DNA from: an uncultured Gemmatimonadales bacterium
Lineage (GTDB): Bacteria; Gemmatimonadota; Gemmatimonadetes; Longimicrobiales; RSA9
Assembly (NCBI GenBank): GCA_963708135.1
Contig: OY970192.1
Coordinates: forward strand, 3,008,001 to 3,072,000
DNA length: 64,000 nt
Direction: 5' to 3'
The notes under the pieces are model-generated. The model saw only the letters and a program-made list of their open reading frames with translations. It was not told the DNA's origin and did no database searches. Shown here in pieces: positions 92 through 64,000 of the stretch. Position 1 is the stretch's first letter. Each line of letters opens with the position of its first letter. Position numbers and translations under genes: made by a program.

Positions 92-294
92 TGAACCGGC
101 GGCGCGGAAGCGTAGCGGCCGTTCGGTGCCACCCGGCCCCGGTCTCGGCGGTTTGTCTTCGTCCCCGGCCTCGCCGTCTCGGCCGGAGACGACGGTTTCG
201 ACCTCGGTTTCCGTCGTCCTGTCCAACGCGTCGTCCTCCGCAAATCCGTTCTGCCCGCTCGATTTTGCAAGCTTCGTGCACAAAAATGCCGGGG

Positions 295-1776: not shown

Positions 1777-1834
1777 GGGACCTCCACGGAAAGAAACGCG
1801 GGCCGTGCGGGCGAGGCCGGCTCGCTCCCGCCGT

Positions 1835-3502
1835 TCAGTTCCCGCGCGCCTCTTCCGGCACGAACCTCAGGTCCTGGTAGTCGTAGCTGAAGTCGGCCAG
1901 CGGGGAGACGGCCTTCATGGTGACGTCGCGGATCGAGCCGTCGGGGCGGAGCGCGAAGGTCACGAAGGCGTCCGGGATGCTGGGGCGGCGCCAGCGCGCC
2001 ACGAAGGTGTCGTACTGCCAGTGCTCGAGGTCGGCGACGAAGGCGGGGGAGTGGCTGAAGCGGAGGACGAGCCGGCCGTCCTCCAGGCGGATCGTCGCCT
2101 GGCCGTACATCGCGTCCTCGTAGCGCCCGGCGTAGCGGGCGAGGGGCAGCGACGGGCCGGCCGTCGAGTCGCGGGCGGCGGCCTGGCGGCGCTCGACGGC
2201 CGCGGCGCGGGCGATGGAGGAGTCGCGCGCGGCGGCGAAGGCGGCGATCCAGTCGGTCTTCGGCGCCCGCAGGTACCGGTCGAGCACCCAGAACGCCACC
2301 GCGGTCGAGGCGCTTGACTCCGAGCTCGTGAGCACGACGACGCCGAGCTTCTCCGAGGGGACGAGGACGGTGCGGGAGATCATGCCGGCGAGGCCGCCGG
2401 AGTGGAGCGCGATCTTCCTGCCGCGGTAGTCGCGGACGTTCCAGCCGAGGGCATATTCCTGGAACTGCGGCTGGTACGGCTCCAGTTGCGGGATGGTGGT
2501 GCCGATCGGCTCGGGGGTGCGGCCCGTCCACATCTCGCGCGTCCGCTCGGCGCTCCAGAGGCGGCGGCTCGTGCCCGCGATGCGGCCGGAATCGAGCTGA
2601 ACGAGGAGCCAGCGTGAGAGGTCCGCCACGCTGGCGTTGATGGCGCCGGCGGGCGCGATGTTGTCCACGGTGTCGCGCGCGACCACGACGAGCTTGCCGT
2701 CGCGGAGGGTGTAGGGTGTGGCGACGTCCATGCCGGGCCGGAAGGCCGTGACGCTCGTGTTGGCGTCCGTCATGGCGAGCGGCTCGAAGATCCGCGCCTT
2801 CACGAACGCGTCCCAGATGGTGTCGGTCACGGCGGGGATGATCTGGCCGGCCGCCACGTAGAGGACGTTGTCGTAGGCGTACGCGCTGCGGAAGCTGGTC
2901 TCGGGAGGGATCGCGCGCATGCGGCGGATGATCTCCTCGCGGCCGTAGGTCGAGTTGAGCCAGAGCAGGTCCCCCGCGCCCAGGCCGAGGCCGCTCCTGT
3001 GCGTGAGCAGGTCCTCGACCGTGAACTCGCGCGTGACCCACGGGTCCGAGAGCTGGAACCACGGCAGGAAATCGGTGACGTGGTCGGTCCAGTGGAGCTT
3101 CCGCTCGTCCACCAGCATGGAGAGCGCAGCGGTGGTGAACGCCTTGGTGTTGGAGGCGATCTGGAAGAGGGTGTGCGCGTCCACGGGCGCGGCCTCGCCC
3201 AGCGTGCGCACGCCGTAGCCCTTCGTCAGCACGACGCGGTCATCCTTCACGATGGCGAGGGCGAGGCCCGGCACCTGGAACGTCTTCATGGCGCGGGCGA
3301 CCTCGGCATCGAGGCCCGCGGGCGGCGTTGCGGCGCGCTGTGCCTCGAGCGGCGCGACGCCGAGCGCGGCGAGCGCGGCGACCAGTCCCGCGGCCGGAAG
3401 GGCGCGCCGGGCTCGCGCGCCGGTGCGAGCGGAGCGGCGACGGCCGGAGAGGCCAGGGCCGGACGGACGGACGGCGGACCAGCTTCGGAACGCGGAGCTC
3501 AC
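1835..3502 (-). CDS. secreted serine hydrolase (class C beta-lactamase-like) with C-terminal DUF3471-like domain
   Basis: SxxK (SNTK), LLTHRSGL, YxN (YDN) and HSGG motifs; signal peptide; GTG start preceded by CAGGAGG. Confidence 0.85.
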   Translation of the reverse strand: MSSAFRSWSAVRPSGPGLSGRRRSARTGARARRALPAAGLVAALAALGVAPLEAQRAATPPAGLDAEVARAMKTFQVPGLALAIVKDDRVVLTKGYGVRTLGEAAPVDAHTLFQIASNTKAFTTAALSMLVDERKLHWTDHVTDFLPWFQLSDPWVTREFTVEDLLTHRSGLGLGAGDLLWLNSTYGREEIIRRMRAIPPETSFRSAYAYDNVLYVAAGQIIPAVTDTIWDAFVKARIFEPLAMTDANTSVTAFRPGMDVATPYTLRDGKLVVVARDTVDNIAPAGAINASVADLSRWLLVQLDSGRIAGTSRRLWSAERTREMWTGRTPEPIGTTIPQLEPYQPQFQEYALGWNVRDYRGRKIALHSGGLAGMISRTVLVPSEKLGVVVLTSSESSASTAVAFWVLDRYLRAPKTDWIAAFAAARDSSIARAAAVERRQAAARDSTAGPSLPLARYAGRYEDAMYGQATIRLEDGRLVLRFSHSPAFVADLEHWQYDTFVARWRRPSIPDAFVTFALRPDGSIRDVTMKAVSPLADFSYDYQDLRFVPEEARGN

Positions 3503-3623
3503 GGAGCGCACCTCCTGCGGGGCGGATCTCGGGTGTCGCGCTAAAGGGCGGTGCCGGCCGGTGCGCACGCAAGGGGCGGTGGTGGCGGGGTCGCTTCGCC
3601 GAGGGCCCCTCGGCCGCCGGCCT

Positions 3624-4883
3624 TCAGCCCGCCTCGATCAGCTCGCGCAGCAGGTGCCAGGCGGTGGCCTGCGCCTCCTGGATGCGCGGGATGTGCTGCG
3701 AGGGCGAGAGGATCACGTGGTCCGCGAGGCCGTCGGCGAGGATACGGCCGCCCTCGTACCCGACGAAGGCAACGCTGGCGAGCCCGCGCCGGCGCGCCTC
3801 CTCGAGGGCGGCGATGACGTTGCGCGAGTCGCCGCTCGTGGAGAAGGCGAGGAGCGCGTCCCCCGGGCGGCCCCAGGCGATCACCTGGCGGGCGAACAGA
3901 GCGTCGGGGCCGATGTCGTTGGCGAGCGCGGTGAGGATGGCCGCGTCCTCGGTGAGGTCGAGCGCGGCACGCGCGGGCCAGCCGTGCGGCGGATCGCGCA
4001 GGTCGGCCACGGCGTCCATGGCGTCCGTGGCCGAGCCGCCGTTGCCGATGGCGAGCAGCGTGCCGCCTCCGTCCAGCGCGCGGCGGAGGGTGGCGGCCGC
4101 GTCCACGAGGCCGGCCGCGGACCGGTGCACGGTACGTGCGCGCAGCGCGGCGACCTCATCGGACTTCATGACCACGGAGCGGCGCACGTCATCGAGGACG
4201 GCGTCGAGGTCGTGCTCCTGCTGGGCGAGGAACGGGTAGAGGAAGCTGGCGCCGCCGGCGTCGTGAGACGTGCGCGCGCCGCCTCCCTCGAGCAGGCCGG
4301 GGTGCTCGAAGAACAGGTGCACCAGCTCCCACAGCACGTGGTAGAGCGTCTCGACGATCTCCTGGCGGACGAACGGATCGGCGGCCGGTGGATCGAAGCT
4401 CCACTCCGCCGCGCCGCCCGCGGCGAAGTCGACGGTGAGGCAGCCGCGCGCACGCAGCGCAGCCACGCTCGCGTTCAGCGCGGCTCGCGCCTCGGCCGGC
4501 CCCGCATCGGTCCCGAAGGCGAGCACGATGTCACCGGAGGCGACGAGGGCGTCCGCCTGCGCCGCGATGTCGCCGCCCTCCGGCGCGAGCCCGAGCGCAG
4601 GGAGCGCGCGCTTCCCGACGATGACGGGGTGCACGAACTCGACGGCGACGTGGCGCGCGTCGGAGCGGGCCGCGGGCGTCGCGGCGAGCGCGACCAGCCG
4701 GCCGCCGCGGGCGAAGCGCTCGGCCATGGCGTGGCAGAGCCGGGCCAGCCGCCCGGCCTCCGCGCCGAAGAAGCGGCGCCCCGCGACGGCGCGTTCCTGG
4801 ACGCGCCGGTCGAGCAGCGTCCCGGCTGACTGGAGCTCCGCGGGCGACGCGAGCGCGGTCGGCGGTGCGGCGCCGGCTCTCAC
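3624..4883 (-). CDS. tandem SIS-domain protein (GmhA/phosphoheptose isomerase-like) of the hydrogenase cluster
   Basis: GNGGSATDA, LTALANDIG and STSGDS in the C-half; degenerate SIS in the N-half (DARHVAVEFVHP); GTG start overlaps upstream TGA. Confidence 0.8.
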   Translation of the reverse strand: MRAGAAPPTALASPAELQSAGTLLDRRVQERAVAGRRFFGAEAGRLARLCHAMAERFARGGRLVALAATPAARSDARHVAVEFVHPVIVGKRALPALGLAPEGGDIAAQADALVASGDIVLAFGTDAGPAEARAALNASVAALRARGCLTVDFAAGGAAEWSFDPPAADPFVRQEIVETLYHVLWELVHLFFEHPGLLEGGGARTSHDAGGASFLYPFLAQQEHDLDAVLDDVRRSVVMKSDEVAALRARTVHRSAAGLVDAAATLRRALDGGGTLLAIGNGGSATDAMDAVADLRDPPHGWPARAALDLTEDAAILTALANDIGPDALFARQVIAWGRPGDALLAFSTSGDSRNVIAALEEARRRGLASVAFVGYEGGRILADGLADHVILSPSQHIPRIQEAQATAWHLLRELIEAG

Positions 4884-4993
4884 GTCGTCGCCATGGCCGC
4901 GTTCTTCACGAGCGTGTCGCGGATCGGGATCAGCGATTCCTCCATCGCGTGGGCGTCCCGCAGCCACGCGAGCAGCAGCTCGTTGCGGTCCAT
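4880..4993 (-). pseudogene. N-terminal remnant of a DUF892/YciE ferritin-like protein (37 aa)
   Basis: MDRNELLLAWLRDAHAMEE resembles the YciE N-terminus; GGAGG RBS; stop after 37 codons. Confidence 0.55.
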
Positions 4994-5015
4994 CTCGCCT
5001 CCTCCTCGGTGCAGC

Positions 5016-5168
5016 CTACATCCGCTCCATGTTCCAGTACCGGCGCATCGCCGGCAGCTCCTTGCGCACGCCGCTCGCCAGCAGCACGCCCACGCCGACG
5101 AGCAGCAGCCAGCCGATCCAGCTCCGTCCTCCGTTGCCTTCGTGCTCGGTCTCGTCCTGCCGTCCCAT
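5016..5168 (-). CDS. small membrane protein of group 1h hydrogenase clusters (DUF6893-like)
   Basis: Manual translation MGRQDETEHEGNGGRSWIGWLLLVGVGVLLASGVRKELPAMRRYWNMERM; one TM helix and PxxRRY..xxM tail. Confidence 0.6.
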   Translation of the reverse strand: MGRQDETEHEGNGGRSWIGWLLLVGVGVLLASGVRKELPAMRRYWNMERM

Positions 5169-5171
5169 GGG

Positions 5172-5963
5172 TCACCCTTCCTGTTGGAGAAGATCGCCGA
5201 GGAGCGCCTCGACCTGCGCGGCCGCGGCGTCCACCGCGGCGGAAACGGGCGCGCTGAGCTCGGCCAGGACCTCGTCCGCGTCCGGGTCGGGCACCACCGC
5301 CGGCTCACATCCCACCACCAGCAGGCGGCTGGGGAGCGGGCCGAGCGCGCGGGCAAAGGCCAGCACGCGGACCGGATCCATGCCGTGCGTCTCGATGCCG
5401 ATCGGACCATCCGCGTCCACGCCGGCATCGATCACGTAGAGCGTGCCGGGCGTACGGCCGCGCGGCACCGCATCGACGAGGATCACCGCGTCGTAGTCCT
5501 GCAGCGCGTAGGCCAGGTCCATGCCGCGGATCCCGAAGTCGTGGACCACCACCCCGGCCGGCAACGCGCGGTCGTGGAGCCGGCCGGCGACTGCGCTGCC
5601 GAAGCCATCGTCGCCGAGGAAGATGTTGCCGATTCCGGCCACGAGGATCCGCGCCGGCGGCGGGAGCGGCTCGATCTCCTCCACGCGGAAGAAGAAGCGG
5701 TGCCCCGGCTGGCGCGCCATCCCGAGGTCGCGTCCGGGGTCGTCCTCGACGGTGACGGCCACGTGGAGAAGGCCGCCCTCGTCCTCGTCGATCCCCTCGA
5801 CGATCGCCACCCGCCCGGCCAGGGCGAGGTCCATGATGTCGCCGCCGGGACGCGGCCGCAGCCTCACCCGGCTGCCCCGGCGGAGCTCGACGCCCGCCAC
5901 CTGGACGCTCTCGGGGCCGGGCCGCTCCATGTCCTCCCAGAAGCCCTGCGGATCAGCCCGCAT
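5172..5963 (-). CDS. hupD: hydrogenase maturation protease with N-terminal SH3-like extension
   Basis: AGIGNIFLGDDGFG, DFGIRG, VDA, HGM and VGCEP motifs. Confidence 0.85.
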   Translation of the reverse strand: MRADPQGFWEDMERPGPESVQVAGVELRRGSRVRLRPRPGGDIMDLALAGRVAIVEGIDEDEGGLLHVAVTVEDDPGRDLGMARQPGHRFFFRVEEIEPLPPPARILVAGIGNIFLGDDGFGSAVAGRLHDRALPAGVVVHDFGIRGMDLAYALQDYDAVILVDAVPRGRTPGTLYVIDAGVDADGPIGIETHGMDPVRVLAFARALGPLPSRLLVVGCEPAVVPDPDADEVLAELSAPVSAAVDAAAAQVEALLGDLLQQEG

Positions 5964-7140
5964 CGCGAGCCTCCCGCGCCGGCGCACGCGGCGGCGCCCG
6001 CAGCCCGCCGACATCCCGGAACGTGCCGTGAAGCCCCATCATCTGGCGCTGCGTGAGCGCCTCTGTCCGCTCGAGAATCTCGCGCGTGCGCGGGTCCGCG
6101 CTGCGCATCGCCTCCCGCTCCGCGTCCGTGAGGCCGAGAATGTTCAGCACGAGCAGCTCGTCGATCTCGCCGCCGTCGAAGAGGTCGCCGGGGCTCTCGG
6201 GCGCGACGCGCGGATAGTCGGACAGGATGATCGGCGCGGCGAGCATCTCGCTCCGGCTGCCGGGCTCTCCCACCAGCACGGGCCAGCAGCCGCGGCTCTC
6301 GCAGCGCGCCACCGCCTCTCCGAGCGCCGGCGGCGGGTCGGTCATGGACACGAAGCGGGCGCTGCGGGCGCACAGCGCGATGTGCGTCGAGATGAAGCTG
6401 GACCGGAGCGCGGACTCGCGGTTCTCGCCGTCCCAGGGCGTCACGTTCTCGGCGACGACGCGCACCCGCGCCAACCGCGCGCCGGCCGGCTCTGCGTACG
6501 CCCGCAGGCGCCCCTCGAGCCCCCTCCAGGCCCGGACCAGCACACCCGCGGGGCGGCCTCCCGCGCCCGGGATCGGCTCCCGCTCTTCGCCCGGCGGGAT
6601 CCGGATCTCGCGCTCGAGCGAGGCGGCGCGGCCCACGCGCAGGCCACGCAGCGACACGTCGCGCTCGCGCGCCTCCTCCCAGCGCTCGTAGCGCTCGCCG
6701 CCCACCTCCAGCGCATCGACGAACCGGAGCGTGTCCCCGTCGCGCTCGGCCACGCGCCGCTCGACCACCTGGAGGAAGCGCACCGAGAGGTTGACGGCGG
6801 GGGGCCCGGCGCCCGGGTCGTCCGGCAGCTCGACCAGCAGCTCGGCCTGCATGCAGCAGGCGTCGTCCTCGTGGCCGCGCGCCGTCCAGCCGGGCGGGAA
6901 CACGCCGCCGAACGTCCAGCGCCGCTGGTTCTTGAGCGCGCTCGTGCGATACGGCCAGAGCATGTAGCCCTCGTAGAGCACGGCGCGCGCGATTGCGCGA
7001 ACGGCGTCCGTTGCGCCGTGCGCCGGCTCGCCCTGGTGCCGTCGGCCGCGCGGGTGCGCCCCGGCGGCCTGGCGGCCGCGGCGCGGCGGCCGCGCCGCGG
7101 CGTCCTCCGCGGCGCCACCGCTCCCGCGCGCACCGCTCAT
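5953..7140 (-). CDS. conserved hypothetical protein of group 1h hydrogenase clusters
   Basis: AVLYEGYMLWPYRTSALKNQRRWTFG and PIILSDYPRVAPESPGDLFDGGEIDE; overlaps neighbouring genes. Confidence 0.75.
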   Translation of the reverse strand: MSGARGSGGAAEDAAARPPRRGRQAAGAHPRGRRHQGEPAHGATDAVRAIARAVLYEGYMLWPYRTSALKNQRRWTFGGVFPPGWTARGHEDDACCMQAELLVELPDDPGAGPPAVNLSVRFLQVVERRVAERDGDTLRFVDALEVGGERYERWEEARERDVSLRGLRVGRAASLEREIRIPPGEEREPIPGAGGRPAGVLVRAWRGLEGRLRAYAEPAGARLARVRVVAENVTPWDGENRESALRSSFISTHIALCARSARFVSMTDPPPALGEAVARCESRGCWPVLVGEPGSRSEMLAAPIILSDYPRVAPESPGDLFDGGEIDELLVLNILGLTDAEREAMRSADPRTREILERTEALTQRQMMGLHGTFRDVGGLRAPPRAPAREARDAG

Positions 7141-7856
7141 GTCTCGTCCCGCTCGAGCAGGGCCTCGATGGTCGCATCCCACGTGGGCGGCGAGTGGCCG
7201 GCGCGAAGCGCGTCGAGGCGGTCGAACAGGTCGCGGCGCATGCGGATCCACGCCGCGTTCGGGTAATGGCTCTCCATGAGCTCCTGCCACAGCGCGGCCG
7301 GCATGGCGTAGCGCGCCTCGCGGTCCCACGGCAGCCGGGCGGCGCGCAGGGCGCCGTCCGGGGCGGCGTAGAAGACGGTGCCGCTGAAGAGGAACTCCAG
7401 CGGGATCTCGCCCTCCCGGACGGCGTTCAGGTACTTCGAGGCGGAGACATCGAAGTCGTAGCCGCACGGGACGCGCAGGGCGACAGTCGCGGCGCCGGTG
7501 AAGGCCGGCACGACCCGGCTGGTGTCGACCCAGAAGAGGCTGCGCAGATTGCGGCCCCAGTCCGGGCGCTCGCCGAAGAGCTCGCGCAGGCCGGGCAGGG
7601 ACGGATCCTCGTAGGCGCGCTCGGGGGCGCGGATCCGGATCTGCGCGTCCAGCGCGAGCGAGCGCACCTCGGCGCCGGCCGCGTCCACCAGCAGCGCGAA
7701 CTCGAGCGTGGGCGCGGCCGCGAACTCGACGACGCGCGCGCTCCCGACGCGGAAGCTCAGGTCGGGCGGCCCGGTCCCGCCCGGCACGGGCCGGCCGGCC
7801 GGCGCGGGGGCGAGGATCGGCGGCACGGCCGGGCGCGGCCGCAGCGGCGTGCTCAT
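7137..7856 (-). CDS. DUF6084-like protein of the hydrogenase cluster
   Basis: ELFGERPDWG, PCGYDF..KY, LFSGTVFY and PWDRE motifs. Confidence 0.7.
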   Translation of the reverse strand: MSTPLRPRPAVPPILAPAPAGRPVPGGTGPPDLSFRVGSARVVEFAAAPTLEFALLVDAAGAEVRSLALDAQIRIRAPERAYEDPSLPGLRELFGERPDWGRNLRSLFWVDTSRVVPAFTGAATVALRVPCGYDFDVSASKYLNAVREGEIPLEFLFSGTVFYAAPDGALRAARLPWDREARYAMPAALWQELMESHYPNAAWIRMRRDLFDRLDALRAGHSPPTWDATIEALLERDET

Positions 7857-8077
7857 GCCGGCGAGAGGTTCGGCATCTCGGGCAGGATCGCGTTGCTCGA
7901 GTCGGCGTTGATCCCCGTCGATCGGCGCGCGGTCGAGCGGCCGTCCGGCAGGTGGCCGTCCATGGCCTCGTAGTTGCCAAGCGCGTTCCCCTCCGCGACG
8001 CCGTGCACGTGCGACGGCCGGGTCGGCGTGGTGTCCGCGCGCCCCACCCGCAGGTTGTCCCGTGTGCGTGTACCCAT
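7853..8077 (-). CDS. small conserved hypothetical protein (74 aa) of the hydrogenase cluster
   Basis: PSHVHGVAEGN...RRSTGIN...MPNLSPA; AGGAG RBS; coupled to the downstream gene. Confidence 0.65.
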   Translation of the reverse strand: MGTRTRDNLRVGRADTTPTRPSHVHGVAEGNALGNYEAMDGHLPDGRSTARRSTGINADSSNAILPEMPNLSPA

Positions 8078-8097
8078 GCTCCCGCTCCTTCCCGTGA

Positions 8098-8856
8098 TCA
8101 GCCCGCGGCCTGCTCCACGCTCCGGCGGGTGCCGCCGCGCGCGGGCCGCGCGCGCGCCGAGACGGCGTCGAAGAACGCGGCCAGCCGCTCCCATACCTCG
8201 CTTCCCCCCGCCAGCCCCTTCCAGTGCGCCCGGATCAGCGCGACGAGCTCGTAGCAGACGTCGATCGGCACCAGCCAGTAGCGCTCGCCGCCGCGCGTGC
8301 GGTCCACGAGCAGCGCCTCCACGTCCGGATCCAGCTCGCGCAGGACCGGGTTGCGCTCCGCCAGCTCGTCCCAGCGGTCGAGCCCCAGCTGCGACTCCAC
8401 CGCCCCCGCCGGCCCCGGATAGAACGCCACCACCCGCCCCGCGGCGCTGTCGGGGAAGAAGAAGGCCATGTCCACCGGCACCGCCAGCGCCGCCCACAGC
8501 GGCGCGGGCAGGTCGAACCCCTCCAGCGCCAGCACCCGGTCGGGCACCACCCGGTACTGCCCGCCGGCCGCCTCCCGGCAATCGAACAGCACCGAGCATG
8601 CCCGGCACACGCAGCGCAGCTCGCGCGCCCCGATGTCGGCCAGGTGGCGGTGCCGCTCCGCGATCGGCTGCGCGCACAGCTCGCAGCGCAGCGTGCCGTC
8701 CACCTCCGGCCCGCCCGGGGAGCCCCCGGCCGGCGCGGGGCCGCGCAGCCGGGCGAGCGTGCCGGCCAGCTCGTCGCCTGCGGCGGGCGCAGGCGGGATT
8801 CGCCCCGAGGCCAGCGCGGCAAGACGCGGCGACGCGAGACGCGACGCGGGCGTCAC
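8098..8856 (-). CDS. DUF5947-like protein (CxxC...H...CxCxxC metal-binding)
   Basis: CELC, HRH, CVCRAC, FYPGPAGAVES and PIDVCYEL..HWKG. Confidence 0.75.
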   Translation of the reverse strand: MTPASRLASPRLAALASGRIPPAPAAGDELAGTLARLRGPAPAGGSPGGPEVDGTLRCELCAQPIAERHRHLADIGARELRCVCRACSVLFDCREAAGGQYRVVPDRVLALEGFDLPAPLWAALAVPVDMAFFFPDSAAGRVVAFYPGPAGAVESQLGLDRWDELAERNPVLRELDPDVEALLVDRTRGGERYWLVPIDVCYELVALIRAHWKGLAGGSEVWERLAAFFDAVSARARPARGGTRRSVEQAAG

Positions 8857-9203
8857 CGGTGGGCCCCGTTCCGTCCCGCCTCGAGCTTCACGAGCGGCGG
8901 GCCGCCGGGGCCGCCCGGCACCTCGGCCGGATCGACGAACCCCAGCGGATGCAGGCCGTGGATCATGAGCAGATGTCCGATCAGCTCATCGCGGGCGAGG
9001 TCCGCGGGCCGGACGGTCGAGTCGGGCGCCTCGAGCCGCTCGAGGACCCGCTCGAGGCAGCCGCCGTAGAGCTCGAGCACCGCCTGCAGGGCCTCGAGCG
9101 CGCGCTCCCGCTGCGACGCCGGCATGCCGTCGATCGCCTCGAGCGCGCGCTCGACCCTGCGGACACGGCCCCGCGCCTCCGCCGCCCCCCCGTCCCCGCT
9201 CAT
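8853..9203 (-). CDS. short NifU-associated N-terminal-domain protein directly downstream of the large subunit
   Basis: LELYGGCLER...LLMIHGLHP; no following CxxC NifU domain. Confidence 0.6.
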   Translation of the reverse strand: MSGDGGAAEARGRVRRVERALEAIDGMPASQRERALEALQAVLELYGGCLERVLERLEAPDSTVRPADLARDELIGHLLMIHGLHPLGFVDPAEVPGGPGGPPLVKLEAGRNGAHR

Positions 9204-56637: not shown

Positions 56638-58650
56638 TCACTGCGTCGAGATGTCCGGCCGCTTCACCACCGTCAGCGTGATCGTGGACGGGTACTTCTT
56701 CGAGTGGTGGACGGCATTGTGCGCCACGACGCCGTGCGCCTCGTCGTAGTTGTGGCCACCGGTGTTGAGGTTCCGGTCGAAGCGCGGGAAGTTGCTGCTC
56801 GACACCTCGATCCGGATGCGGTGGCCCGGCGCGAAGTAGTTGCTGGTGTTCATCGGGCCGAGGGTCACCGGATAGACCTTGCCGGGCTGCATCCACACCT
56901 GCCTGTCGTAGCCGTCCCGGTAGCGCATGCGCTGGATCGTCTCGTCCAGGTTGTAGGCCGTGCCGTCGGGCGCCACGTCGATCAGCTTGGCGGTGAAATC
57001 GGTGTCCTTTGCGTCCGAGGAGACGAAGAGCTTCACGGTCACCGGACCGGTCACGTCCACGCCCTCCTTGAGCGGATCGGTGGTGTAGACGAGGATGTCC
57101 GGCCGCGCCTCCATCTTCCGCTGGTCGAGCGCGCCGCCCTGCACGGCGTTGCCCGTGCAGCAGACGTTGCCGCCGTGCGAGGGCACCGGGTCCATGGGAT
57201 CGTAGGTGAAGGCGTCCGGGTGGTCCGCGGAGGGCGCGTGAGCGGCGAGGGCGCCGTCGCCTGAAAGGGTGTTGGCCTTGCCGCCGCTCGTGAGGAAGAA
57301 GGTCTGCGGCCGCGCGCCGGCGGGAGGCCAGCTGTCCGCGGAATGCCAGCGGTTCTCGCCCATCGTGTAGTACCGCACGCGTGGCATGGTGTCGAGCACC
57401 GTGTGCTGCTCGCCCTTGAGGAAGCGGTCGAAGAAGCCGTACGTCATGTCGTTGTAGTCGAAGCGGGCGTCGCCGACGCTGCGCTCCCCGACGACGGTGT
57501 TCTCGGTCGCGCGCGTGTAGGAGCAGTGCAGCGTCGGCGCGATGATGAGCCACTGCTCCTTGCCCACCTCCGGGTCGGCCGTCTCGCGCACGTGGTTGTA
57601 CGTGGCCAGGTTCGGGCCGATCGAGACGTCGTACCAGGACGTGAACCACAGCCCGGGCACGTCGATCTTCATCGAGCCGTGGTAGAGGCCGCCGCGCCAC
57701 CAGGCGGAGTCCCCCGGCGTGCGCGCGATCATGTCGCCGCCCGTCGCCACCGGCATCGAGTCCGCGAAGATCCCGTGCGGGCCGTCCACCGCCGCGATGA
57801 TGCTGTCCTCCGGAAGGTGCCGGAGCGCCTCGGACCAGTCCACCGGCGGCAGCTGCTGCGCCATGTCGAACGCCTTGGAGGCCCGGATCAGGTCCTCCTG
57901 CGACGTGTTCGCCGGGAACATCGGCCGCACCTGGTTCTGCTCGCCGTACAGCCACGCGATGAACAGCATCTGCACCGCGCCGCCCCGGTACCAGTTGCCC
58001 TGCTCCCAGTACGGCCCCACCTGCCCCACGCCCGCGCCGAAGCCCTGCGGGTTGATCGCCGCCAGCCCGGGAGGCGACGTCGCCGCGACCCCCATCTGCC
58101 ACTCCGCCGTCGACGAGCAGCCCACGAGCCCCACCTTCCCGTTGGCCCACGGCTGCGTCGACATCCACTTGACGGCGTCGTAGCCGTCCGTGCGCGGCGG
58201 GCCAAGGATGTCGTAGTTGCCCTCGCTGAAGAAGTGCCCGCGCTCGTTCATCTCCACGTAGGCGTAGCCGCGCTTCACCGCCTCGAGCTCCCGGCTCATG
58301 TCGCGCGGCACGCCGTTGCGCACGTCCCAGTAGTTGAAGTTGTACGGCGTGCGCACGAAGATGATCGGCACCGCTCCGGTCGCGTTCTTCGGCCGGTAGA
58401 CGTCCGTCGCCATGCGTTTCCCGTCGCGCATCGGCACCATGACCTTGCGGCCGATCACCGCGACGCTCTCGAGCTCGTGCTCCACCTCCCAGCGGTGCGC
58501 CTTCTGCTCGTCGGTCATGGGACCGCGGCGCTGGGCGGCGAGCGGCCGCGCAGGCGCGAGCGCCGCGCACACCACGGCGAGGGCCGCCGCGGCGAGAGTG
58601 GCCTGGGAGCGTGCGTATCGGCGCATGGCTCGACTCCGGGTTGTGGACAT
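56638..58650 (-). CDS. CocE/NonD family hydrolase, secreted
   Basis: MRDG, RTPY, GCSS nucleophile elbow, SWYD and [10 protein letters not shown]. Confidence 0.88.
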
Positions 58651-58827
58651 CGCAGGCTGCGGCGTGGGACCTGTCAATATGCGCACGGGCGTGGTGGAAG
58701 TGTCAAGGCTCTGAAGGCGACGGGGCGCGGGGGTGGGGGCGGAGGAGGAGTAGCGCAGGGGCACGGGAGCTGACGGACTGACCGATGTCCGGTCTGGCTA
58801 TGTCGCCGCCCCTCGCCGCAGGTTTCC

Positions 58828-59859
58828 GTGTACGGCATGGACGCGGAAATCGTTGCTCTCGGAAAGGGACTGCTGGGTGTCCGGTTCGCGTTCGACCGCG
58901 CCGCCGTCGCGGCGGTGCGGGCGATCCCGGGCCGCCGCTGGAACCCGACTGAGGGTCGCTGGACCGTCCCCAACACCCCCGAGAGCAGAGCCCGGCTGGC
59001 TGAGATCTTTCCCGAAAGCGACGACGACGGTTCTCTCCGCGCGCGTCTCCTCCAGGAGCTCCGCATCCGCCGCTACAGCCCGCGCACCATCAAGGCGTAT
59101 CGAAGCCACCTGACCGGATTCGCCCGCCATCTCGGCGGGCGGCCCGGCGAGGCGACGTCGGAGGACGTGCGTGCGTACCTCCTCGCCCTGCAGGCCCGAG
59201 GCGTGTCCGCGGCGTACCAGAACCAGGCCGTCAGCGCGCTGCGCTTCTTCTTCATCCACGTGCTCCGGCGGGAGCTCGATCCGGAGGCCGTGCCCAGGCC
59301 AAAGCGCGACCGGAAGCTGCCGGCGGTACTGAGCGGCGAGGAGATCCGCCGGCTCATCGCCGCGATTCGAAATCCGAAACATCGGGCACTGCTGCTCGTC
59401 ACCTATTCCGCGGGTCTCCGCGTCAGTGAAGCGGTACGCCTGAAACTCATGGATCTGGACGAAGACCGACGAATGATTTACGTTCGCGGAGGCAAGGGCA
59501 GAAAAGATCGGCAGACTCTACTGTCCGACCGCGCGCTCACGGCAGTGCGGGAGGCCCGTAAGTCCGCCGGCTCGAGCCAGTGGCTCTTTCCGGGAGCCCG
59601 CCCCGGCCGCCACCTGACCGCCCGCTCGTTCCAGAAGGTGATCGAGCGCGCGCGCGTCCGCGCCGGCATCGAGAAGCGGTTCTCCGTCCACGCCCTGCGC
59701 CACAGCTTTGCGACGCACCTGCTCGAGGCGGGCACGGACCTCCGCTACATCCAGGAGCTGCTCGGCCACTCGAGCACGCGGACGACCGAAATCTACACGC
59801 ACGTGAGCAAGCGCCAGATCGCCCGGATCCGTAGCCCGCTGGACACGTTGGGGGAGTGA
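58828..59859 (+). CDS. tyrosine recombinase, integron-integrase-like but lacking the IntI insertion; N-terminal HARP-like domain
   Basis: SAM-like YSPRTIKAY..QNQAVSAL; catalytic GLRVSE, GKG, HALRH, LGH and IYTH intact; adjacent to the cassette array. Confidence 0.9.
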   Translation: MYGMDAEIVALGKGLLGVRFAFDRAAVAAVRAIPGRRWNPTEGRWTVPNTPESRARLAEIFPESDDDGSLRARLLQELRIRRYSPRTIKAYRSHLTGFARHLGGRPGEATSEDVRAYLLALQARGVSAAYQNQAVSALRFFFIHVLRRELDPEAVPRPKRDRKLPAVLSGEEIRRLIAAIRNPKHRALLLVTYSAGLRVSEAVRLKLMDLDEDRRMIYVRGGKGRKDRQTLLSDRALTAVREARKSAGSSQWLFPGARPGRHLTARSFQKVIERARVRAGIEKRFSVHALRHSFATHLLEAGTDLRYIQELLGHSSTRTTEIYTHVSKRQIARIRSPLDTLGE

Positions 59860-59929
59860 GCTGCGGGTGGAGGGGGCGCTTGCGGACGCCCTCGCCCACG
59901 AATGGGCGCACAACGGCGCCGAGGACGCC

Positions 59930-59987
59930 GCTTACCGAAATTCGCCAAGTACGCGCCATCACGAAATTCGTAAACTGAACGTTATCT
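59930..59987 (+). promoter_or_regulatory. attI-like primary recombination site
   Basis: TAAACTGAAC|GTTA at the first junction; CGAAATTCG direct repeats at 59936 and 59962; no attC hairpin upstream. Confidence 0.6.
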
Positions 59988-60356
59988 GGAATGCGCTGGA
60001 GCGCTGAACAGCAATGATGTGCTCCGCCGCCCCGCCCCGGTTCCAGCGGCTTTGCGTTCGCGGTGCGATCGACGTCCCCGGCCGGGACGGGTCGGACCGA
60101 CAGGAGCTGGTGAGTCGCCGTGCTTGCGCCGGCTGCGGTTCGGCAGCGAGAGAGATTAGGGGCGTCGCCGTCGACTTTCGACCGTTCCAGGGTTGCACGG
60201 CTTCGGCCGGACAGGAGAGGCGCACTCCAGATAACAGAGCGGTGACCGCTGCGCCGCCTGGGCGGCTTGCCCGCCGGGGGAGCGGTGGCGGCGTTTAGCA
60301 ACACAACATGGGCCGGCGGGACACGGCGCTGCGCGCCGCGTCGGTAACCGCGAAAC
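59981..60356 (+). repeat. ORF-less cassette type A, copy 1 (376 bp)
   Basis: Starts GTTATCTGGAATGCGC; inverse core GCGCACTCCAGATAAC at 60220-60235. Confidence 0.85.
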
Positions 60357-60732
60357 GTTATCTGGAATGCGCTGGAGCGCTGAACAGCAATGATGTGCTC
60401 CGCCGCCCCGCCCCGGTTCCAGCGGCTTTGCGTTCGCGGTGCGATCGACGTCCCCGGCCGGGACGGGTCGGACCGACAGGAGCTGGTGAGTCGCCGTGCT
60501 TGCGCCGGCTGCGGTTCGGCAGCGAGAGAGATTAGGGGCGTCGCCGTCGACTTTCGACCGTTCCAGGGTTGCACGGCTTCGGCCGGACAGGAGAGGCGCA
60601 CTCCAGATAACAGAGCGGTGACCGCTGCGCCGCCTGGGCGGCTTGCCCGCCGGGGGAGCGGTGGCGGCGTTTAGCAACACAACATGGGCCGGCGGGACAC
60701 GGCGCTGCGCGCCGCGTCGGTAACCGCGAAAC
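60357..60732 (+). repeat. ORF-less cassette type A, copy 2 (376 bp)
   Basis: Appears identical to copy 1; inverse core at 60596-60611. Confidence 0.85.
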
Positions 60733-60750
60733 GTTAGAAGACATGCCGGG

Positions 60751-60782
60751 TTGACGGGCGGTGGTACTGAGTACTATAGTAC
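60751..60782 (+). promoter_or_regulatory. sigma70-type TA promoter with palindromic operator
   Basis: TTGACG-N18-TATAGT; palindrome GTACTATAGTAC (60771-60782) over the -10; GGAGG follows. Confidence 0.7.
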
Positions 60783-60818
60783 GGAGGACGTTGAAGCCGG
60801 GAGGCTCGTATCGAATTC

Positions 60819-61139
60819 GTGGCAACCCGCAGCTTCGAGAGCTCCGCGAAGAAGCTCCTGTCCGAAGAGGACCGGAGGCAGCTTGAGTTGCTCCTGCTGG
60901 GAGATCCACGACATGGCAAGGTGATTGAGCGCACTGGCGGTTTCCGGAAGGTGCGCTTCGCTCGACCCAGCCGGCGTGAAGGGAAGAGCGGCGGTACTCG
61001 GGTGATCTACTATCTCCTCGATCGACGTGACCGGATCTACCTGCTCCTCGTGTACGCGAAGGGGGTGAAGGACACCCTCACCCGCACCGAGGAGAACGAA
61101 CTTCGGAAGCTGGCAAAGGCATTGGAGGAAGAACGGTGA
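60819..61139 (+). CDS. RelE/HigB-type toxin (toxin-first order); true start may be upstream
   Basis: GKVIERTGGFRKVRF...GKSGGTRVIYY...LLLVYAK..KDTLT. Confidence 0.85.
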   Translation: MATRSFESSAKKLLSEEDRRQLELLLLGDPRHGKVIERTGGFRKVRFARPSRREGKSGGTRVIYYLLDRRDRIYLLLVYAKGVKDTLTRTEENELRKLAKALEEER

Positions 61140-61516
61140 CCAAGGCACGGAGGAAGGGTACGTTCGGGCAGGTGCTCATCGAGTCCGCAAGAGAGGCGGT
61201 GCAGATCGAGCGCGGTGAGGCACCCCCGGCTCGTGTCACCAAGCACACGGCTGCGGAAACGAGGGTGGCACCTCCGCCTCAATACGTGCCGGAACGTATC
61301 AAGGGAATCCGGGATGTCATGGCATTGTCCCAGCCTGTCTTCGCTGCGGCCTTGAATGTGAGTCCAGAGACAGTCCGCGCTTGGGAACAGGGGAAGAGGG
61401 AACCCGACGGCCCTACGCTTCGACTCCTCAAGGTAGCGGAGCAGCACCCCGAGGTGCTCCTTACAAAAGTGCGGGCCCGAAGGTCGAGGAAACGGCCCAG
61501 CGCCGAGATCCGGTAA
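61136..61516 (+). CDS. HigA-type XRE HTH antitoxin
   Basis: LSQPVFAAALNVSPETVRAWEQGKREPDGP; GTGA overlap with the toxin. Confidence 0.85.
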   Translation: MTKARRKGTFGQVLIESAREAVQIERGEAPPARVTKHTAAETRVAPPPQYVPERIKGIRDVMALSQPVFAAALNVSPETVRAWEQGKREPDGPTLRLLKVAEQHPEVLLTKVRARRSRKRPSAEIR

Positions 61517-61666
61517 CGTGCCTTGGAATGACGCGGTCAGCGTCATGGCCGGCACGTCTTCTAACACACGGTGAGCGCCTGCGCGGCTTCGCTCCGGCCC
61601 TTCGGGACACCGAATCCTCAGCGCCGCGTTGCGGCGCCACCGGTTCGGCGTCGCTCACCTGGAAAC

Positions 61667-62043
61667 GTTATCCGGAATGCGCTGGTGCGCTGGGGAGTGA
61701 ACCTCTTGTTCCCCTCCCCGCCCCGGATCCAGCGGTTTCGCGGGACCGGTGCAATCGATGATCCTGGCACACCGGGTTCGCGAGGCAGCAGCTGGTGAGG
61801 CGCCGGGCGCATCGTTCCTGTATCCGCGGCGTCGAGAGCCCGGCCGGAGTCGAAGCGTTTGTCGGCGCTGAGTTCCGGGCCGCGCCCGCCTTCCGCTGGA
61901 GGCGGAGGGGCGCACTCCGGATAACAGAGCGGTGGCCGCTGCGCCGCCTTCAGCGGCTTGCCCGCCGGGTGAAGTGAAGTCGTAGGCTGAGAACACGGGC
62001 CGGCGGGACGCGGCGCTGGGGGCCGCGTCGGCAACCGCCAGAC
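61667..62043 (+). repeat. ORF-less cassette, divergent type B (377 bp)
   Basis: Starts GTTATCCGGAATGCGC; inverse core GCGCACTCCGGATAAC at 61910-61925. Confidence 0.8.
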
Positions 62044-62420
62044 GTTATCTGGAATGCGCTGGAGCGCTGAACAGCAATGATGTGCTCCGCCGCCCCGCCC
62101 CGGTTCCAGCGGCTTTGCGCTCGCGGTGCGATGGACGTTGACGGGCCGGGATGCGTCAGAGGAGGCAGGAGCTGGTGAGGCGCCGTGCGTCGGCCCGCCG
62201 GTGCGGTTCGGCAGCGGGGCACGTGCAGGTCGCCGGCGGCGAGTTGCGACCGTTCCAGAGTGCACGGCTGTGGCAGGACGCGAGAGGCGCACTGCAGATA
62301 ACGGAGCGGTGACCGCTGCGCCGCCTTCGGCGGCTCGCCCGCCGGGTGAAGTGAAGTCCAAGCCCGAAAAGATGGGCCGGCGGGACACGGCGCTGCGCGC
62401 CACGTCGGTAACCGAGAGAC
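62044..62420 (+). repeat. ORF-less cassette type C, copy 1 (377 bp)
   Basis: 5' part matches type A, remainder diverges; inverse core at 62287-62302. Confidence 0.8.
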
Positions 62421-62797
62421 GTTATCTGGAATGCGCTGGAGCGCTGAACAGCAATGATGTGCTCCGCCGCCCCGCCCCGGTTCCAGCGGCTTTGCGTTCG
62501 CGGTGCGATCGACGTCCCCGGCCGGGACGGGTCGGACCGACAGGAGCTGGTGAGTCGCCGTGCTTGCGCCGGCTGCGGTTCGGCAGCGAGAGAGATTAGG
62601 GGCGTCGCCGTCGAACTTTCGACCGTTCCAGGGTTGCACGGCTTCGGCCGGACAGGAGAGGCGCACTCCAGATAACAGAGCGGTGACCGCTGCGCCGCCT
62701 GGGCGGCTTGCCCGCCGGGGGAGCGGTGGCGGCGTTTAGCAACACAACATGGGCCGGCGGGACACGGCGCTGCGCGCCGCGTCGGTAACCGCGAAAC
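62421..62797 (+). repeat. ORF-less cassette type A, copy 3 (377 bp)
   Basis: Type A with a 1-nt insertion; inverse core at 62661-62676. Confidence 0.85.
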
Positions 62798-63154
62798 GTT
62801 ATCTGGAATGCGCTGGAGCGCCAAACAGCTGATGTGGTCCCCGCCCCGCCCGGTTCCAGCGGCTTTGCGCTCGCGGTGCGATGGACGTTACGGGCCGGGA
62901 TGCGTCCGAGGGGGCAGGAGCTGGTGAGGCGCCGTGCGTCAGCCCCGCCGGTGCGGTTCGGCGGCGGGGCACCTGCAGGTCGCCGGCGGCGAGTTGCGGC
63001 CATTACAGAGTGCACGGCTGTGGCAGGACGGGAGAGGCGCACTCCAGATAACGGAGCGGTGACCGCTGCGCGCTTGGCGGCTGCGCGGGTGAAGTGAAGT
63101 CAAGCGAAACGAGGGGGCGGGACACGGCGCTGCGCGCCGCGTCGGTAACGAAAC
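62798..63154 (+). repeat. ORF-less cassette type C, copy 2 (357 bp, deletions in the attC part)
   Basis: Inverse core at 63037-63052. Confidence 0.75.
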
Positions 63155-63530
63155 GTTATCTGGAATGCGCTGGAGCGCTGAACAGCAATGATGTGCTCCG
63201 CCGCCCCGCCCCGGTTCCAGCGGCTTTGCGTTCGCGGTGCGATCGACGTCCCCGGCCGGGACGGGTCGGACCGACAGGAGCTGGTGAGTCGCCGTGCTTG
63301 CGCCGGCTGCGGTTCGGCAGCGAGAGAGATTAGGGGCGTCGCCGTTGAACTTTCGACCGTTCCAGGGTTGCACGGCTTCGGCCGGACAGGAGAGGCGCAC
63401 TCCAGATAACAGAGCGGTGACCGCTGCGCCGCCTGGGCGGCTTGCCCGCCGGGGGAGCGGTGGCGGCGTTTAGCAACACAACATGGGCCGGCGGGACACG
63501 GCGCTGCGCGCCGCGTCGGTAACCGCGAAA
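63155..63530 (+). repeat. ORF-less cassette type A, copy 4; 3' crossover missing
   Basis: Inverse core at 63395-63410; ends CGCGAAA without CGTTA. Confidence 0.8.
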
Positions 63531-63595
63531 AAACCGCCATGTTCCGCTCGGCCTTTTGTAGCAGATTTGGGGTGATAACGACAAAGGGAGATTCC

Positions 63596-63807
63596 ATGGC
63601 GAGCGTACGATCGAGGAACTGCTGAAGTTGTGTGGGGAGCGAATCCAGCTGGTCGAAGATCTCTGGGATAGCATGCTGGGACGGAGGGATTTCCGCTCTG
63701 AGGCACAGAAGGCCGAGCTGGATCGCCGGTTAGAGGAGCACAGGGCGGATACGGATAGCGGTGCCTGGGAAGAGGTTCGTGAGCGGCTGTACAAGAAGTA
63801 CGGGTGA
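63596..63807 (+). CDS. addiction-module antitoxin component (TIGR02574-like), apparent early frameshift
   Basis: Manual translation ..IEELLKL..ERIQLVEDLWDS..QKAELDRRLEEH..WEEVRERL; ATG out of frame by an indel. Confidence 0.75.
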
Positions 63808-64000
63808 GTAGCGAGTTCGTTGTCCGCCTCAGGCAGAAGCAGAACTAGATGAGGCTGCGGCTTGGTATTCTGAGCGTTCGAGGGGATTGGGAGCAGAGTT
63901 CGTTCGAATAGTCGATGCCGCGTTCGCGGCGATACAGAGAAATCCGCTACAGTTTACAGTTGTACACAGACAAGTGCGGCGGGCGGTGCTTAGAAGATTT
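63804..64000 (+). CDS. ParE/RelE-family toxin, partial, apparent early frameshift
   Basis: Manual translation ..AEAELDEAAAWYSERSRGLGAEFVRIVDAAFAAIQRNPLQF..VRRAVLRRF. Confidence 0.75.

Follow-up and report, generated by a model that had tools for sequence, protein, structure and literature searches.

Repeated gene-less cassettes in a chromosomal integron-like array of an uncultured Gemmatimonadales bacterium: candidate selfish or neutral passengers of a recombinase

Next to a tyrosine recombinase gene, positions 59981-63531 of the window (the whole 64,000-nt stretch of DNA that was analysed) hold seven repeated units with no evident gene, which raises the question of what these units are and why they recur. 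A preliminary description had ordered them as A, A, B, C, A, C, A and had suggested that they represent a structured non-coding RNA, a DNA-level function, or a selfish minimal cassette amplified by the recombinase. Mapped individually (Table 1), all seven are real and their A/B/C order is correct, but the title of that description omits a 934-bp toxin-antitoxin cassette between A2 and B1. Their lengths (376, 376, 377, 377, 377, 357, and 377 nt) bear out the claim that 376-377 nt is held in six of seven units, and the measured parts (body, 248-258 nt; attC-like part, 109-128 nt) agree with the proposed split into ~255 and ~120 bp. The three shared sequence blocks named there were all found, the first with a 1-nt deletion in Cs.

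Table 1. Features of the array start; coordinates are positions in the window.
Feature	Position	Strand	Remarks
Tyrosine recombinase, IntI/Xer-like	58828..59859	+	Adjoins array, co-directional
attI-like spacer	59860..59980	+	Recombinase stop codon to first crossover G
Cassette A1	59981..60356	+	Gene-less, 376 nt, array position 1; 100% identical to A2
A1 recombination site as placed in array	60220..60372	.	9-nt tail extension to 9-nt head extension
Cassette A2	60357..60732	+	Gene-less, 376 nt; own-genome BLAST and unit alignment
Toxin-antitoxin cassette	60733..61666	+	Non-family, 934 bp; between A2 and B1
Promoter-like site of toxin-antitoxin cassette	60751-60780		Sigma-70 scan
RelE-like ORF of toxin-antitoxin cassette	60819-61139		Profile searches
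HTH antitoxin-like ORF of toxin-antitoxin cassette	61136-61516		Profile searches
Cassette B1	61667..62043	+	Gene-less, 377 nt; 100% identical to B4, 14 kb off
Cassette C1	62044..62420	+	Gene-less, 377 nt; own-genome BLAST and unit alignment
Cassette A3	62421..62797	+	Gene-less, 377 nt; 1-nt insertion relative to A1
Cassette Cs	62798..63154	+	Gene-less, C-type, 357 nt; deletions, mostly in attC part
Cassette A4	63155..63531	+	Gene-less, 377 nt; degenerate 3' junction, no GTTA
Start of next cassette after A4	63532..64000	+	Antitoxin-like ORF at 63628-63807

The array, at a single chromosomal locus of this soil bacterium, spans ~25 kb and ~31 cassettes and extends past the window to about position 3092865 of the source genome (G000). 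BLASTn of the family across its own genome, a check that had been proposed, gave 14 matches that correspond to 13 gene-less cassettes, all on the + strand between G000 positions 3067979 and 3084449; no copy lies outside the array in the 5.45-Mb genome. The 13 units have ~70% G+C and fall into four subtypes (A, B, C, and D) with inter-subtype identities of 57-82%. Three pairs are 100% identical (A1 and A2, B1 and B4, C3 and C4), the pair of flanking cassettes differs for every one of the 13 copies, and A1 and A2 occupy array positions 1 and 2, beside the recombinase. The toxin-antitoxin cassette has a second copy at G000 position 3079067. We rejected the idea that subtype D is a rearranged copy, as it aligns collinearly with the other subtypes.

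Tandem near-identical repeats mis-assemble readily, and an artefact had been named as a possibility, but a collapsed or over-expanded repeat appears extremely improbable here. Logan contigs from the sole DNA run with the region, probably the source sample itself, leave 62562-63900 uncovered and have depths of 18 for the A unit, 20.7 for the B unit, 10.4 for the toxin-antitoxin cassette, and 5.6-7.5 for the flank. These read-derived depths fit ~3-4 copies each of A and B and two of the toxin-antitoxin cassette, unitig depths track the assembled copy numbers, and loose contig ends reproduce four other junctions of the assembly. Together, the depths and the matching ends indicate that the repeats are not produced by the assembler; moreover, sequence differences separate the subtypes, and the neighbours are particular to each copy.

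The boundaries of the units are precise. Cassette junctions, in which RAAC is followed by GTTA and the cut falls between G and TT, are common to family units and ORF-bearing cassettes, and an exact 7-nt R'' complement of a cassette's own head is present in 24 of 30 junction-defined intervals. The 16-nt tail of the family units complements their own head at 13-15 of 16 positions, whereas tail and next head at heterologous junctions are complementary at only 6-12 of 16. Because the tail fits its own head better than the next one, the crossover point and the mobile unit are fixed. At family-family junctions, the chromosomal site retains the full 16-bp outer stem, with 14-15 of 16 positions paired. 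The 3' junction of A4 is degenerate, so A4 is fused to the next cassette. With their core sites and inverted repeats, the units are attC-bounded gene cassettes of the integron type. A 16-nt inverted repeat bounds the body, but we rejected a MITE-like element, since head/tail pairing also occurs in ORF cassettes and no copy lies outside the array. An internal attC duplication in the body was likewise discarded: self-BLAST returns only the site palindrome and the head/tail repeat.

The outer stem of 16 bp, formed by the 16-nt head and the tail, is found on every cassette of the array, ORF cassettes included. Across 35 distinct sites from nine genomes, L'' and L' match at 8-9 of 10 positions, the site is 93-185 nt long, and most spacers measure 2-4 nt on the left and 5-7 nt on the right. 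The A1 site consists of R'' (AGATAAC, 60229-60235), the L''/L' arms with the loop, and R' (GTTATCT, 60357-60363), and its 9-nt head extension comes from A2. Folded as single-stranded DNA (60222-60370), the A site has z-scores of -3.66 (bottom strand) and -3.16 (top strand), and the fold energies are about equal (-43.5 and -44.8 kcal/mol, respectively), giving no energy-based strand bias. Extrahelical bases of the folded attC bottom strand mark the strand in IntI-attC systems; the folds predicted here contain 1x1 mismatches and an asymmetric internal loop, not single bulged bases. An A/C mispair (head A, tail C) occupies outer-stem position 11 in 52 of 54 cases and becomes a G.T wobble in the bottom strand only, which may have a role, to judge by its conservation.

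The units are non-coding. As had been noted, no reading frame is conserved: substitutions in whole ungapped blocks are flat by codon phase (9/9/10, 14/13/14, 14/12/14, and 15/14/16), non-synonymous changes greatly outnumber synonymous ones whichever of the six frames is read, and indels between subtypes are mostly of 1 nt; even A1 and A3 differ by a 1-nt indel that shifts the frame. The subtypes have no common start codon, and the longest family ORF has no match in Pfam or NCBIfam. Long stop-free frames do occur on both strands, and within one 26-nt block the three A/B differences share a codon phase, which would favour a small protein; such frames, however, are expected at ~70% G+C. On balance, it is highly improbable that the body encodes a small protein on one of the two strands.

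A non-coding body that nonetheless has blocks common to its subtypes could contain a structured RNA (an sRNA, ribozyme, or riboswitch-like element), which was the leading idea of the preliminary description. We consider this improbable. Rfam gives 0 matches for 58500-64000 (E<=1) and 0 for the remaining array (E<=0.1), and the inner body folds no better than shuffled sequences (MFE z-scores of -0.93 to +1.70 for five variants on both strands). The RNAalifold covariation check on both strands, run on an alignment of A, B, C, Cs, and D, gave an SCI of 0.41 and a consensus structure no better than 200 column shuffles (z = +0.73 on the + strand and -1.32 on the - strand), the fold tests having been made on sequence alignments and the covariation tests being low-powered, with ~5 independent lineages and no homologues elsewhere. 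Covariation is confined to one pair, at head position 7 (T-A versus C-G), which is part of the recombination site, and no promoter or terminator signal was detected.

The shared blocks are indeed present, but part of this motif conservation is the 16-nt head/tail site stem that every cassette in the array has. Across subtypes A to D, conservation is high only in the site parts (0.93 in the head, 0.89-0.93 in the tail, R'', and L'', and 0.90 in the L' region), drops to 0.39-0.49 at body positions 137-220, and is similar in the attC loop (0.38). Body positions 21-80, in the 5' third, are conserved at 0.68-0.72, more than the rest of the body. This stretch could be a functional element rather than a product of gene conversion, which counts against a selfish origin.

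One such element would be a promoter or other cis-regulatory module by which the body drives or modulates transcription of the downstream cassettes, an explanation that is doubtful, although it deserves more weight than a structured RNA. The moderate conservation of the 5' third is consistent with it, and most of the Vibrionaceae gene-less cassettes tested by Blanco et al. (2024) were active as promoters on the sense strand, while in-silico prediction proved unreliable for those cassettes (PMC11014356). However, a sigma-70 scan of 59800-63700 found a single site, located inside the toxin-antitoxin cassette, and no sigma-70-like promoter in the gene-less units; the family has ~70% G+C; and in 6 of 13 cases the cassette that follows is itself a family member and not one with an ORF, an arrangement hardly expected of promoter modules.

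Eleven of the 13 copies have a total length of 376-378 nt, although their parts are less constant: the body ranges over 248-258 nt and the attC part over 118-128 nt, the two shifting by up to 10 nt in opposite directions. Such near-constancy despite variation of the parts counts against selfish or neutral cassettes. The claim of conserved length holds for most copies, but only weakly beyond chance: a random-sign test of inferred indels gives P values of 0.08-0.32 per pair, the pairs being non-independent, and two members deviate, Cs with 357 nt and B2 with 373 nt. The opposite variation of the parts, together with the full outer stem at family-family junctions, would be compatible with a body or fixed cassette length that serves recombination itself. 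Either might set the spacing of neighbouring folded sites or the geometry of the small circle, or offer the recombinase or a host factor a place to bind. We regard such a DNA-level helper as unlikely, since the indel test gives no lower P values than these, Cs and B2 break the length rule, the non-family cassettes of the array range from 660 to 2493 bp, and no recurrent binding-site motif was detected in the body. By our own arithmetic, 376-378 bp corresponds to ~36 helical turns and 357 bp to 34; 373 bp does not fit this series.

The explanation that we favour, at somewhat better than an even chance, is that the recombinase has amplified these units as gene-less cassettes of an integron-like array on the chromosome, where they are carried as selfish or neutral passengers. 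It fits best because the boundaries are precise, identical copies occur in unlike surroundings, and the first two array positions belong to A1 and A2; of the alternatives put forward earlier, the selfish minimal cassette is thus retained, and the structured RNA is unsupported. In the mobile unit of ~376 bp, a non-coding inner body (223-233 nt) would be joined to a folded recombination site of ~150 nt, which the first 16 nt of the same cassette complete. The adjacent recombinase most likely excises units between G and TT as small circles, which would re-insert at the junction on the attI side or into other attC sites, and one ancestral cassette would have multiplied to 13 copies in four diverged subtypes. 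The spacer between the recombinase gene and A1 includes two CGAAATTCG repeats (59936-59944 and 59962-59970) and, based on its position, is a candidate attI. Most likely, the body yields no product and does little or nothing for the host; small size and a full stem may favour amplification, and a short cassette with a perfect site would persist as a selfish or neutral passenger because it is copied efficiently.

The recombinase itself is atypical. It matches PF00589 (147.6 bits, 3.9e-43), with the HxLRH and terminal Y motifs present, and NF040815 (225.5, cut-off 220), but scores below cut-off against TIGR02249 (216.9 versus 265) and NF011946 (154.5 versus 435), and no match to an IntI model above cut-off occurs anywhere in G000, which has an intI remnant and no intact canonical IntI. 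The TIGR02249 alignment is in two stretches, skipping profile positions 179-234. Alignment with IntI4 (2A3V) is also in two parts (77-236/12-173 and 261-340/240-319), so the recombinase has 24 aa where IntI4 has 66. The distance from GKGxKxR to HxLRH is 66 aa in the recombinase and 66 or 69 aa in the 11 of 14 examined orthologues in which both motifs were found, and an N-terminal extension of ~70 aa has no family match. Messier and Roy reportedly described the IntI-specific additional domain in 2001. This domain of ~35 aa, located near patch III (Cury et al. 2016, PMC4889954), is held to enable use of folded single-stranded attC sites (PMC4792948; PMC4889954). By sequence, the protein thus has the catalytic domain of a tyrosine recombinase but lacks the IntI-specific insertion and falls short of the curated cut-off of the IntI model.

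Chromosomal integrons of the "inverted integron-integrase" group have large, sedentary, toxin-antitoxin-rich arrays and a recombinase gene upstream of and co-directional with the array, like the locus described here. Their integrases are defined by the IntI-specific domain, which this recombinase lacks; the group is named by Cury et al. (2016, PMC4889954). A two-profile IntI definition would score the array as integrase-less, similar to the CALINs, or attC clusters without an integron integrase, of the same study (PMC4889954). Unlike CALINs, however, G000 and nine related genomes with the same layout of recombinase and extended-stem array have a conserved IntI/Xer-like recombinase 80-260 nt from the first cassette, and the domain-less recombinases reported by Cury et al. 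lie only next to fewer than three attC sites (PMC4889954). No extended-stem cassettes were detected in 20 kb of sequence near the canonical IntI of genome G027 or in 12 kb near the G000 intI remnant, with a detector that would overlook attC sites of the classical type.

Gene-less cassettes are already known; unusual here are the recombinase of the array and the unusually long recombination sites. Tansirichaiya et al., in 2019, reportedly described gene-less promoter cassettes that consist of a short non-coding body and attC. Those of Blanco et al. (2024, PMC11014356) are built alike, but the units described here have no predicted sigma-70-like promoter and abut each other instead of fronting ORF cassettes. 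In Vibrio arrays, non-coding cassettes form paralogous families that can reach 45 copies and that have been proposed to be selfish (Boucher et al. 2006, PMC1382264). As described there, these are also free of ORFs and of a coding signature, repeated many times per array, and have homologues only in very close relatives or none; the suggestion was that they are either selfish or of service to the integron (PMC1382264). The present family, with no coding signature, several paralogues, and no homologue found elsewhere, belongs to the same category, but it differs from the Vibrio families in its host, which is probably Gemmatimonadaceae-like, in its ~70% G+C, in having no homologue in the other genomes searched, in a recombinase without the IntI insertion, and in the 16-bp outer stem of its sites.

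By itself, the family is another case of gene-less cassettes that have been amplified, and it is further evidence that families of this kind can do without a structured RNA; its setting matters more. It is possible, although we would place this a little below an even chance, that the array and its counterparts in at least nine related genomes form an undescribed integron lineage in which cassettes recombine without the IntI-specific insertion, sites with 16-bp arms compensate, and short gene-less cassettes are the most mobile passengers. In such a lineage the 16-bp arm, half of it cassette tail and half own head, carries the head-A/tail-C mispair, and one reason for gene-less mobility could be that same-family runs rebuild the full stem in the chromosome. 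With a conserved domain-less recombinase, ~30-cassette arrays, no intact canonical IntI, and 100%-identical copies, it would become testable whether cassettes can recombine without the insertion or whether these arrays are more Xer-like in mechanism. These observations also suggest that some arrays now scored as integrase-less are not so.

BLAST searches of 60 relatives returned no homologue of the family, and the family's block pattern had one match with three mismatches (in G063) among 72 family genomes, at the level of the reversed-pattern controls. Scans with the head pattern gave 8 loci in genome contigs and 22 loci in metagenome contigs, all 30 of which are unrelated DNA without the tail motif, in contig sets that may omit records of the source genome itself. 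In line with the favoured explanation, the relative G065 has a separate short gene-less family: three copies are near-identical (two of 317 bp and a truncated one of 273 bp), and a further, diverged copy of 321 bp occupies the first array position.

The preliminary description had listed seven units in the window, and all seven are present (59981-63531), but they do not form an uninterrupted run, as a cassette carrying a toxin-antitoxin module separates the second from the third (see table). The window corresponds to G000:C1:3008001-3072000, and the whole source genome (G000) contains 13 cassettes of this family, all on the + strand at 3067979-3084449 and none elsewhere in its 5.45 Mb (BLAST with unit A, 14 matches). 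Subtype A accounts for four of them (99-100% alike) and subtype B for another four (96-100%). C comprises three copies at 99-100% together with the shorter Cs (85-86%), and D is a single copy, which aligns collinearly with the other subtypes along its full length; identity between A, B, C, and D is 56-82%. Because A and C are identical over their first 77 nt (and ~75% alike thereafter) while C shares its attC loop with B and not with A, the subtypes are mosaics, and the blocks of conservation may in part be explained by gene conversion.

Coordinates of the cassettes, the adjoining recombinase gene, and canonical IntI genes of two relatives (G027, G065)
Feature	Position	Strand	Length	Basis or remark
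Recombinase gene	58828-59859	+		tyrosine recombinase
A1	59981-60356	+	376 nt	
A2	60357-60732	+	376 nt	
Toxin-antitoxin cassette	60733-61666		934 bp	RelE-like ORF and HTH antitoxin-like ORF (ORF/profile matches)
B1	61667-62043	+	377 nt	
C1	62044-62420	+	377 nt	
A3	62421-62797	+	377 nt	
Cs	62798-63154	+	357 nt	
A4	63155-63531	+	377 nt	
Canonical IntI gene	G027:C1:1401601-1402308			over cut-off
Canonical IntI gene	G027:C6:4028-4888			over cut-off
Canonical IntI gene	G065:C2:1322-2267			frameshifted

The copies are not an assembly artefact. In one DNA run, probably of the source sample, which holds 71% of sampled words, the family copy numbers are real, because read depths and loose-end junctions agree with the assembly: its contigs cover the recombinase flank at depth 5.6-7.5, an A unitig of 406 nt at 18, a B unitig of 358 nt at 20.7, and the toxin-antitoxin cassette at 10.4 (about twice the flank), and loose contig ends match the junctions to four other assembly cassettes.

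The recombinase gene lies upstream of the units on the same strand, its stop 121 nt before the first of them, and the array runs on past the window end to about G000 3092865, where the last junction is followed by a Mutator-family transposase. Over this distance there are 30 junction-to-junction intervals of the form ..RAAC/GTTA.., one of which is A4 fused with its neighbor via a degenerate junction, giving ~31 cassettes, 13 of them from the family. Other cassettes encode toxin-antitoxin modules (RelE/HTH twice, HicAB, DUF4258, an HI1420-type antidote, and Unstab_antitox), HTH proteins, DUF3800, a subtilase fragment, and family-less ORFs, a content typical for a sedentary chromosomal integron. 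The second copy of the RelE-like/HTH cassette is at G000 3079067-3080000, and the downstream neighbors differ between the two copies. The 3' junction of A4 (63525-63545) reads ..GCGAAA/AAACCGCC.. in place of ..GCGAAAC/GTTA.., with the R' core lost; A4 is thereby fused to an antitoxin cassette whose head resembles the cassette head at G000 3073814. Two direct repeats of CGAAATTCG, spaced 26 nt apart (59936-59944 and 59962-59970), closely precede the first crossover and may be where the recombinase binds in an attI-like site.

All family members terminate in an attC-like element. In it, R'' (AGATAAC) is separated by a short left spacer from L'' (GGTGACCG in A), a variable loop lies between L'' and L' (CGGTAACC), and a longer right spacer leads to R' (GTTATCT), the last six bases of which are contributed by the next cassette. 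Using simple purpose-made detectors rather than IntegronFinder, and over at most 15 kb of each relative's array, we found the same geometry in 35 distinct sites from G000 and eight relatives; L'' and L' agree at 8-9 positions out of 10, most spacers measure 2-4 nt on the left and 5-7 nt on the right, and site length is 93-185 nt (median 150).

Pairing extends past the 7-bp R box, between the first 16 nt of a cassette (the head) and the 16 nt ending in its own R'' (the tail). We compared 54 distinct head/tail pairs from nine genomes (64 found), selected by at least 13/16 matches and an exact 7-nt R box, with the type and place of mismatches unselected. At stem positions 8-10 and 12-16, between 40 and 54 of the 54 have a Watson-Crick pair, a number that falls to 11-27 at positions 17-20. 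Position 11 pairs head-A with tail-C in 52 of 54, an A.C mispair on the top strand and a G.T wobble on the bottom strand. The tail matches its own head at 13-15/16 positions in 21 of the 24 G000 cassettes with a tail found, versus only 6-12/16 for the next cassette's head at heterologous junctions; therefore, head and tail belong to one mobile unit cut at G/TT. The full stem would form in the excised circle, and also in the chromosome between adjacent family members, where six junctions have 14-15/16 matching stem positions.

Identity averaged over the pairs of subtypes (A, B, C, and D) follows this site: it is 0.93 in the head, 0.89-0.93 over the tail, R'', and L'', 0.90 in the conserved 3' attC arm just upstream of L', and 0.79 over L', versus 0.68-0.72 at body positions 21-80, 0.39-0.49 at positions 137-220, and 0.38 in the attC loop. 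The shared "GGAATGCGC" and "GCGCACTCC" ends noted previously are present but represent the site and not the body, because the head/tail stem belongs to the recombination site; once the site ends are taken off, the inner body is 223-233 nt, not ~255 bp. Total length is indeed 376-378 nt in 11 of 13 copies, with varying body and attC parts (A 248+128, B and C 252/253+125, D 258+118), but when the inferred indels are put to a random-sign test, the P values for single pairs are 0.08-0.32, so that length conservation is suggestive only.

The absence of a conserved reading frame is borne out. Substitutions between subtypes are flat by codon phase in every long ungapped block (e.g., 9/9/10, 14/13/14, 14/12/14, 9/10/12, and 15/14/16), non-synonymous changes exceed synonymous ones several-fold in all six frames, and most indels span 1-4 nt, with lengths not divisible by three; one inserted base separates A1 and A3, and B2 differs from B1 by four 1-nt deletions. 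The longest ORF of the family has no Pfam or NCBIfam match, and we take the family to be non-coding.

The suggestion that the units encode a structured RNA found no support. Rfam yielded nothing for 58500-64000 (E<=1) or for the other 30 kb of the array (E<=0.1). On both strands, the inner bodies of A1, B1, C1, Cs, and D1 show no folding advantage over dinucleotide shuffles (z -0.93 to +1.70), and RNAalifold on the same five gives an SCI of 0.41 and a consensus energy that does not improve on 200 column shuffles (+ strand, z +0.73; - strand, z -1.32), these alignments being sequence-based and their ~5 lineages affording limited power. The single-stranded site fold, in contrast, is significantly structured (z -3.66 and -3.16), and the sole clear compensatory change in the family, T-A (A, C) versus C-G (B, D), is at head position 7, in the R box. 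A sigma-70 consensus scan of 59800-63700 found no site in the family cassettes and one, TTGACG-18-TATAGT (60751-60780), inside the toxin-antitoxin cassette.

The family was found in G000 alone among the genomes searched, a set without other species of its genus. When 60 relatives were searched by BLAST with unit A, eight genomes (7/59 without the unpublished G019) gave matches, all confined to the attC part (query 215-373), with no body homologs. A 26-nt body pattern (<=3 mismatches) has 12 matches in G000 and one in 72 family genomes, with 3 mismatches, equal to the control level; genome_contigs has eight loci with the head pattern and metagenome_contigs has 22, but no member of the family is among them.

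The best-supported reading is a gene-less cassette that would have multiplied by site-specific recombination, because its boundaries are precise, its copies are confined to the array, 100%-identical copies occur in different contexts, and two identical copies occupy the first two positions beside the recombinase gene. In integrons, new cassettes enter at the first positions beside the recombinase. Of the earlier proposals, that of an amplified selfish minimal cassette fits best; that the neighboring recombinase moves the cassettes, and that their short length and in situ full stem raise turnover, we infer, function and mobility alike being deduced from sequence.

The text of Boucher et al. (2006; PMC1382264) reports that non-coding cassettes form 6-49% of Vibrio arrays, show a tendency toward paralogy (one family has 45 copies in V. 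vulnificus CMCP6), and have close homologs in other vibrios or none, and proposes that they are selfish or integron-serving. The present family, likewise a repeated gene-less cassette family in one array, is one more such case. A relative of another genus (G065) has its own short gene-less family, BLAST-unrelated to that of G000, at positions 232-9075 of G065:C2:531778-546777, in which three copies are near-identical (317 bp, 317 bp, and 273 bp, the last truncated) and a diverged one of 321 bp occupies the first array position.

The recombinase, judged by its sequence, is not a canonical IntI. Against the IntI model TIGR02249 it reaches 216.9 (cut-off 265), matching in two stretches with profile positions 179-234 left out, and it has 24 aa where the IntI4 structure 2A3V has 66; its alignment with archaeal XerA-type proteins is unbroken. 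The spacing from GKGxKxR to HxLRH is 66 aa, and 66 or 69 aa in 11/11 orthologs in which both motifs were found (14 examined), versus ~100 aa in IntI4 as estimated from the alignment. Of the 101 genomes searched, 32, with G000 among them, have an ortholog at E<=1e-40 (29/98 without the unpublished G015, G016, and G038). Among the published orthologous loci, 16 have 1 kb or more of sequence downstream, and in 9 of these, extended-stem cassettes start 80-440 nt after the gene. The text of Smyshlyaev et al. (2021; PMC8138268) describes the insertion as "not fully conserved" in their integron-like subgroup; in the open-access text searched, there was no description of an insertion-less recombinase with large arrays, or of a 16-bp stem.

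No match over the IntI cut-off was found in G000, G012, G081, or G035. The sole trace in G000 is a C-terminal IntI/Xer-like remnant 220 kb away (2844019-2844501, - strand), which is probably a decayed canonical intI, because its TIGR02249 matches (190-228 and 244-310) lie in two different frames; no extended-stem cassettes occur near it within the fetched 12 kb. Canonical IntI genes are present in G027 (two) and G065 (one, frameshifted), all far from these arrays, and since both genomes also carry the insertion-less recombinase with an array elsewhere, two systems may coexist in them. The recombinase itself begins with a ~70-aa N-terminal extension (58828-59040, residues 1-70) containing the motif GRRWNPTEGRWTVP and without a Pfam or NCBIfam match, which is at least partly conserved, because several orthologs match from query residue 9-18 onward.
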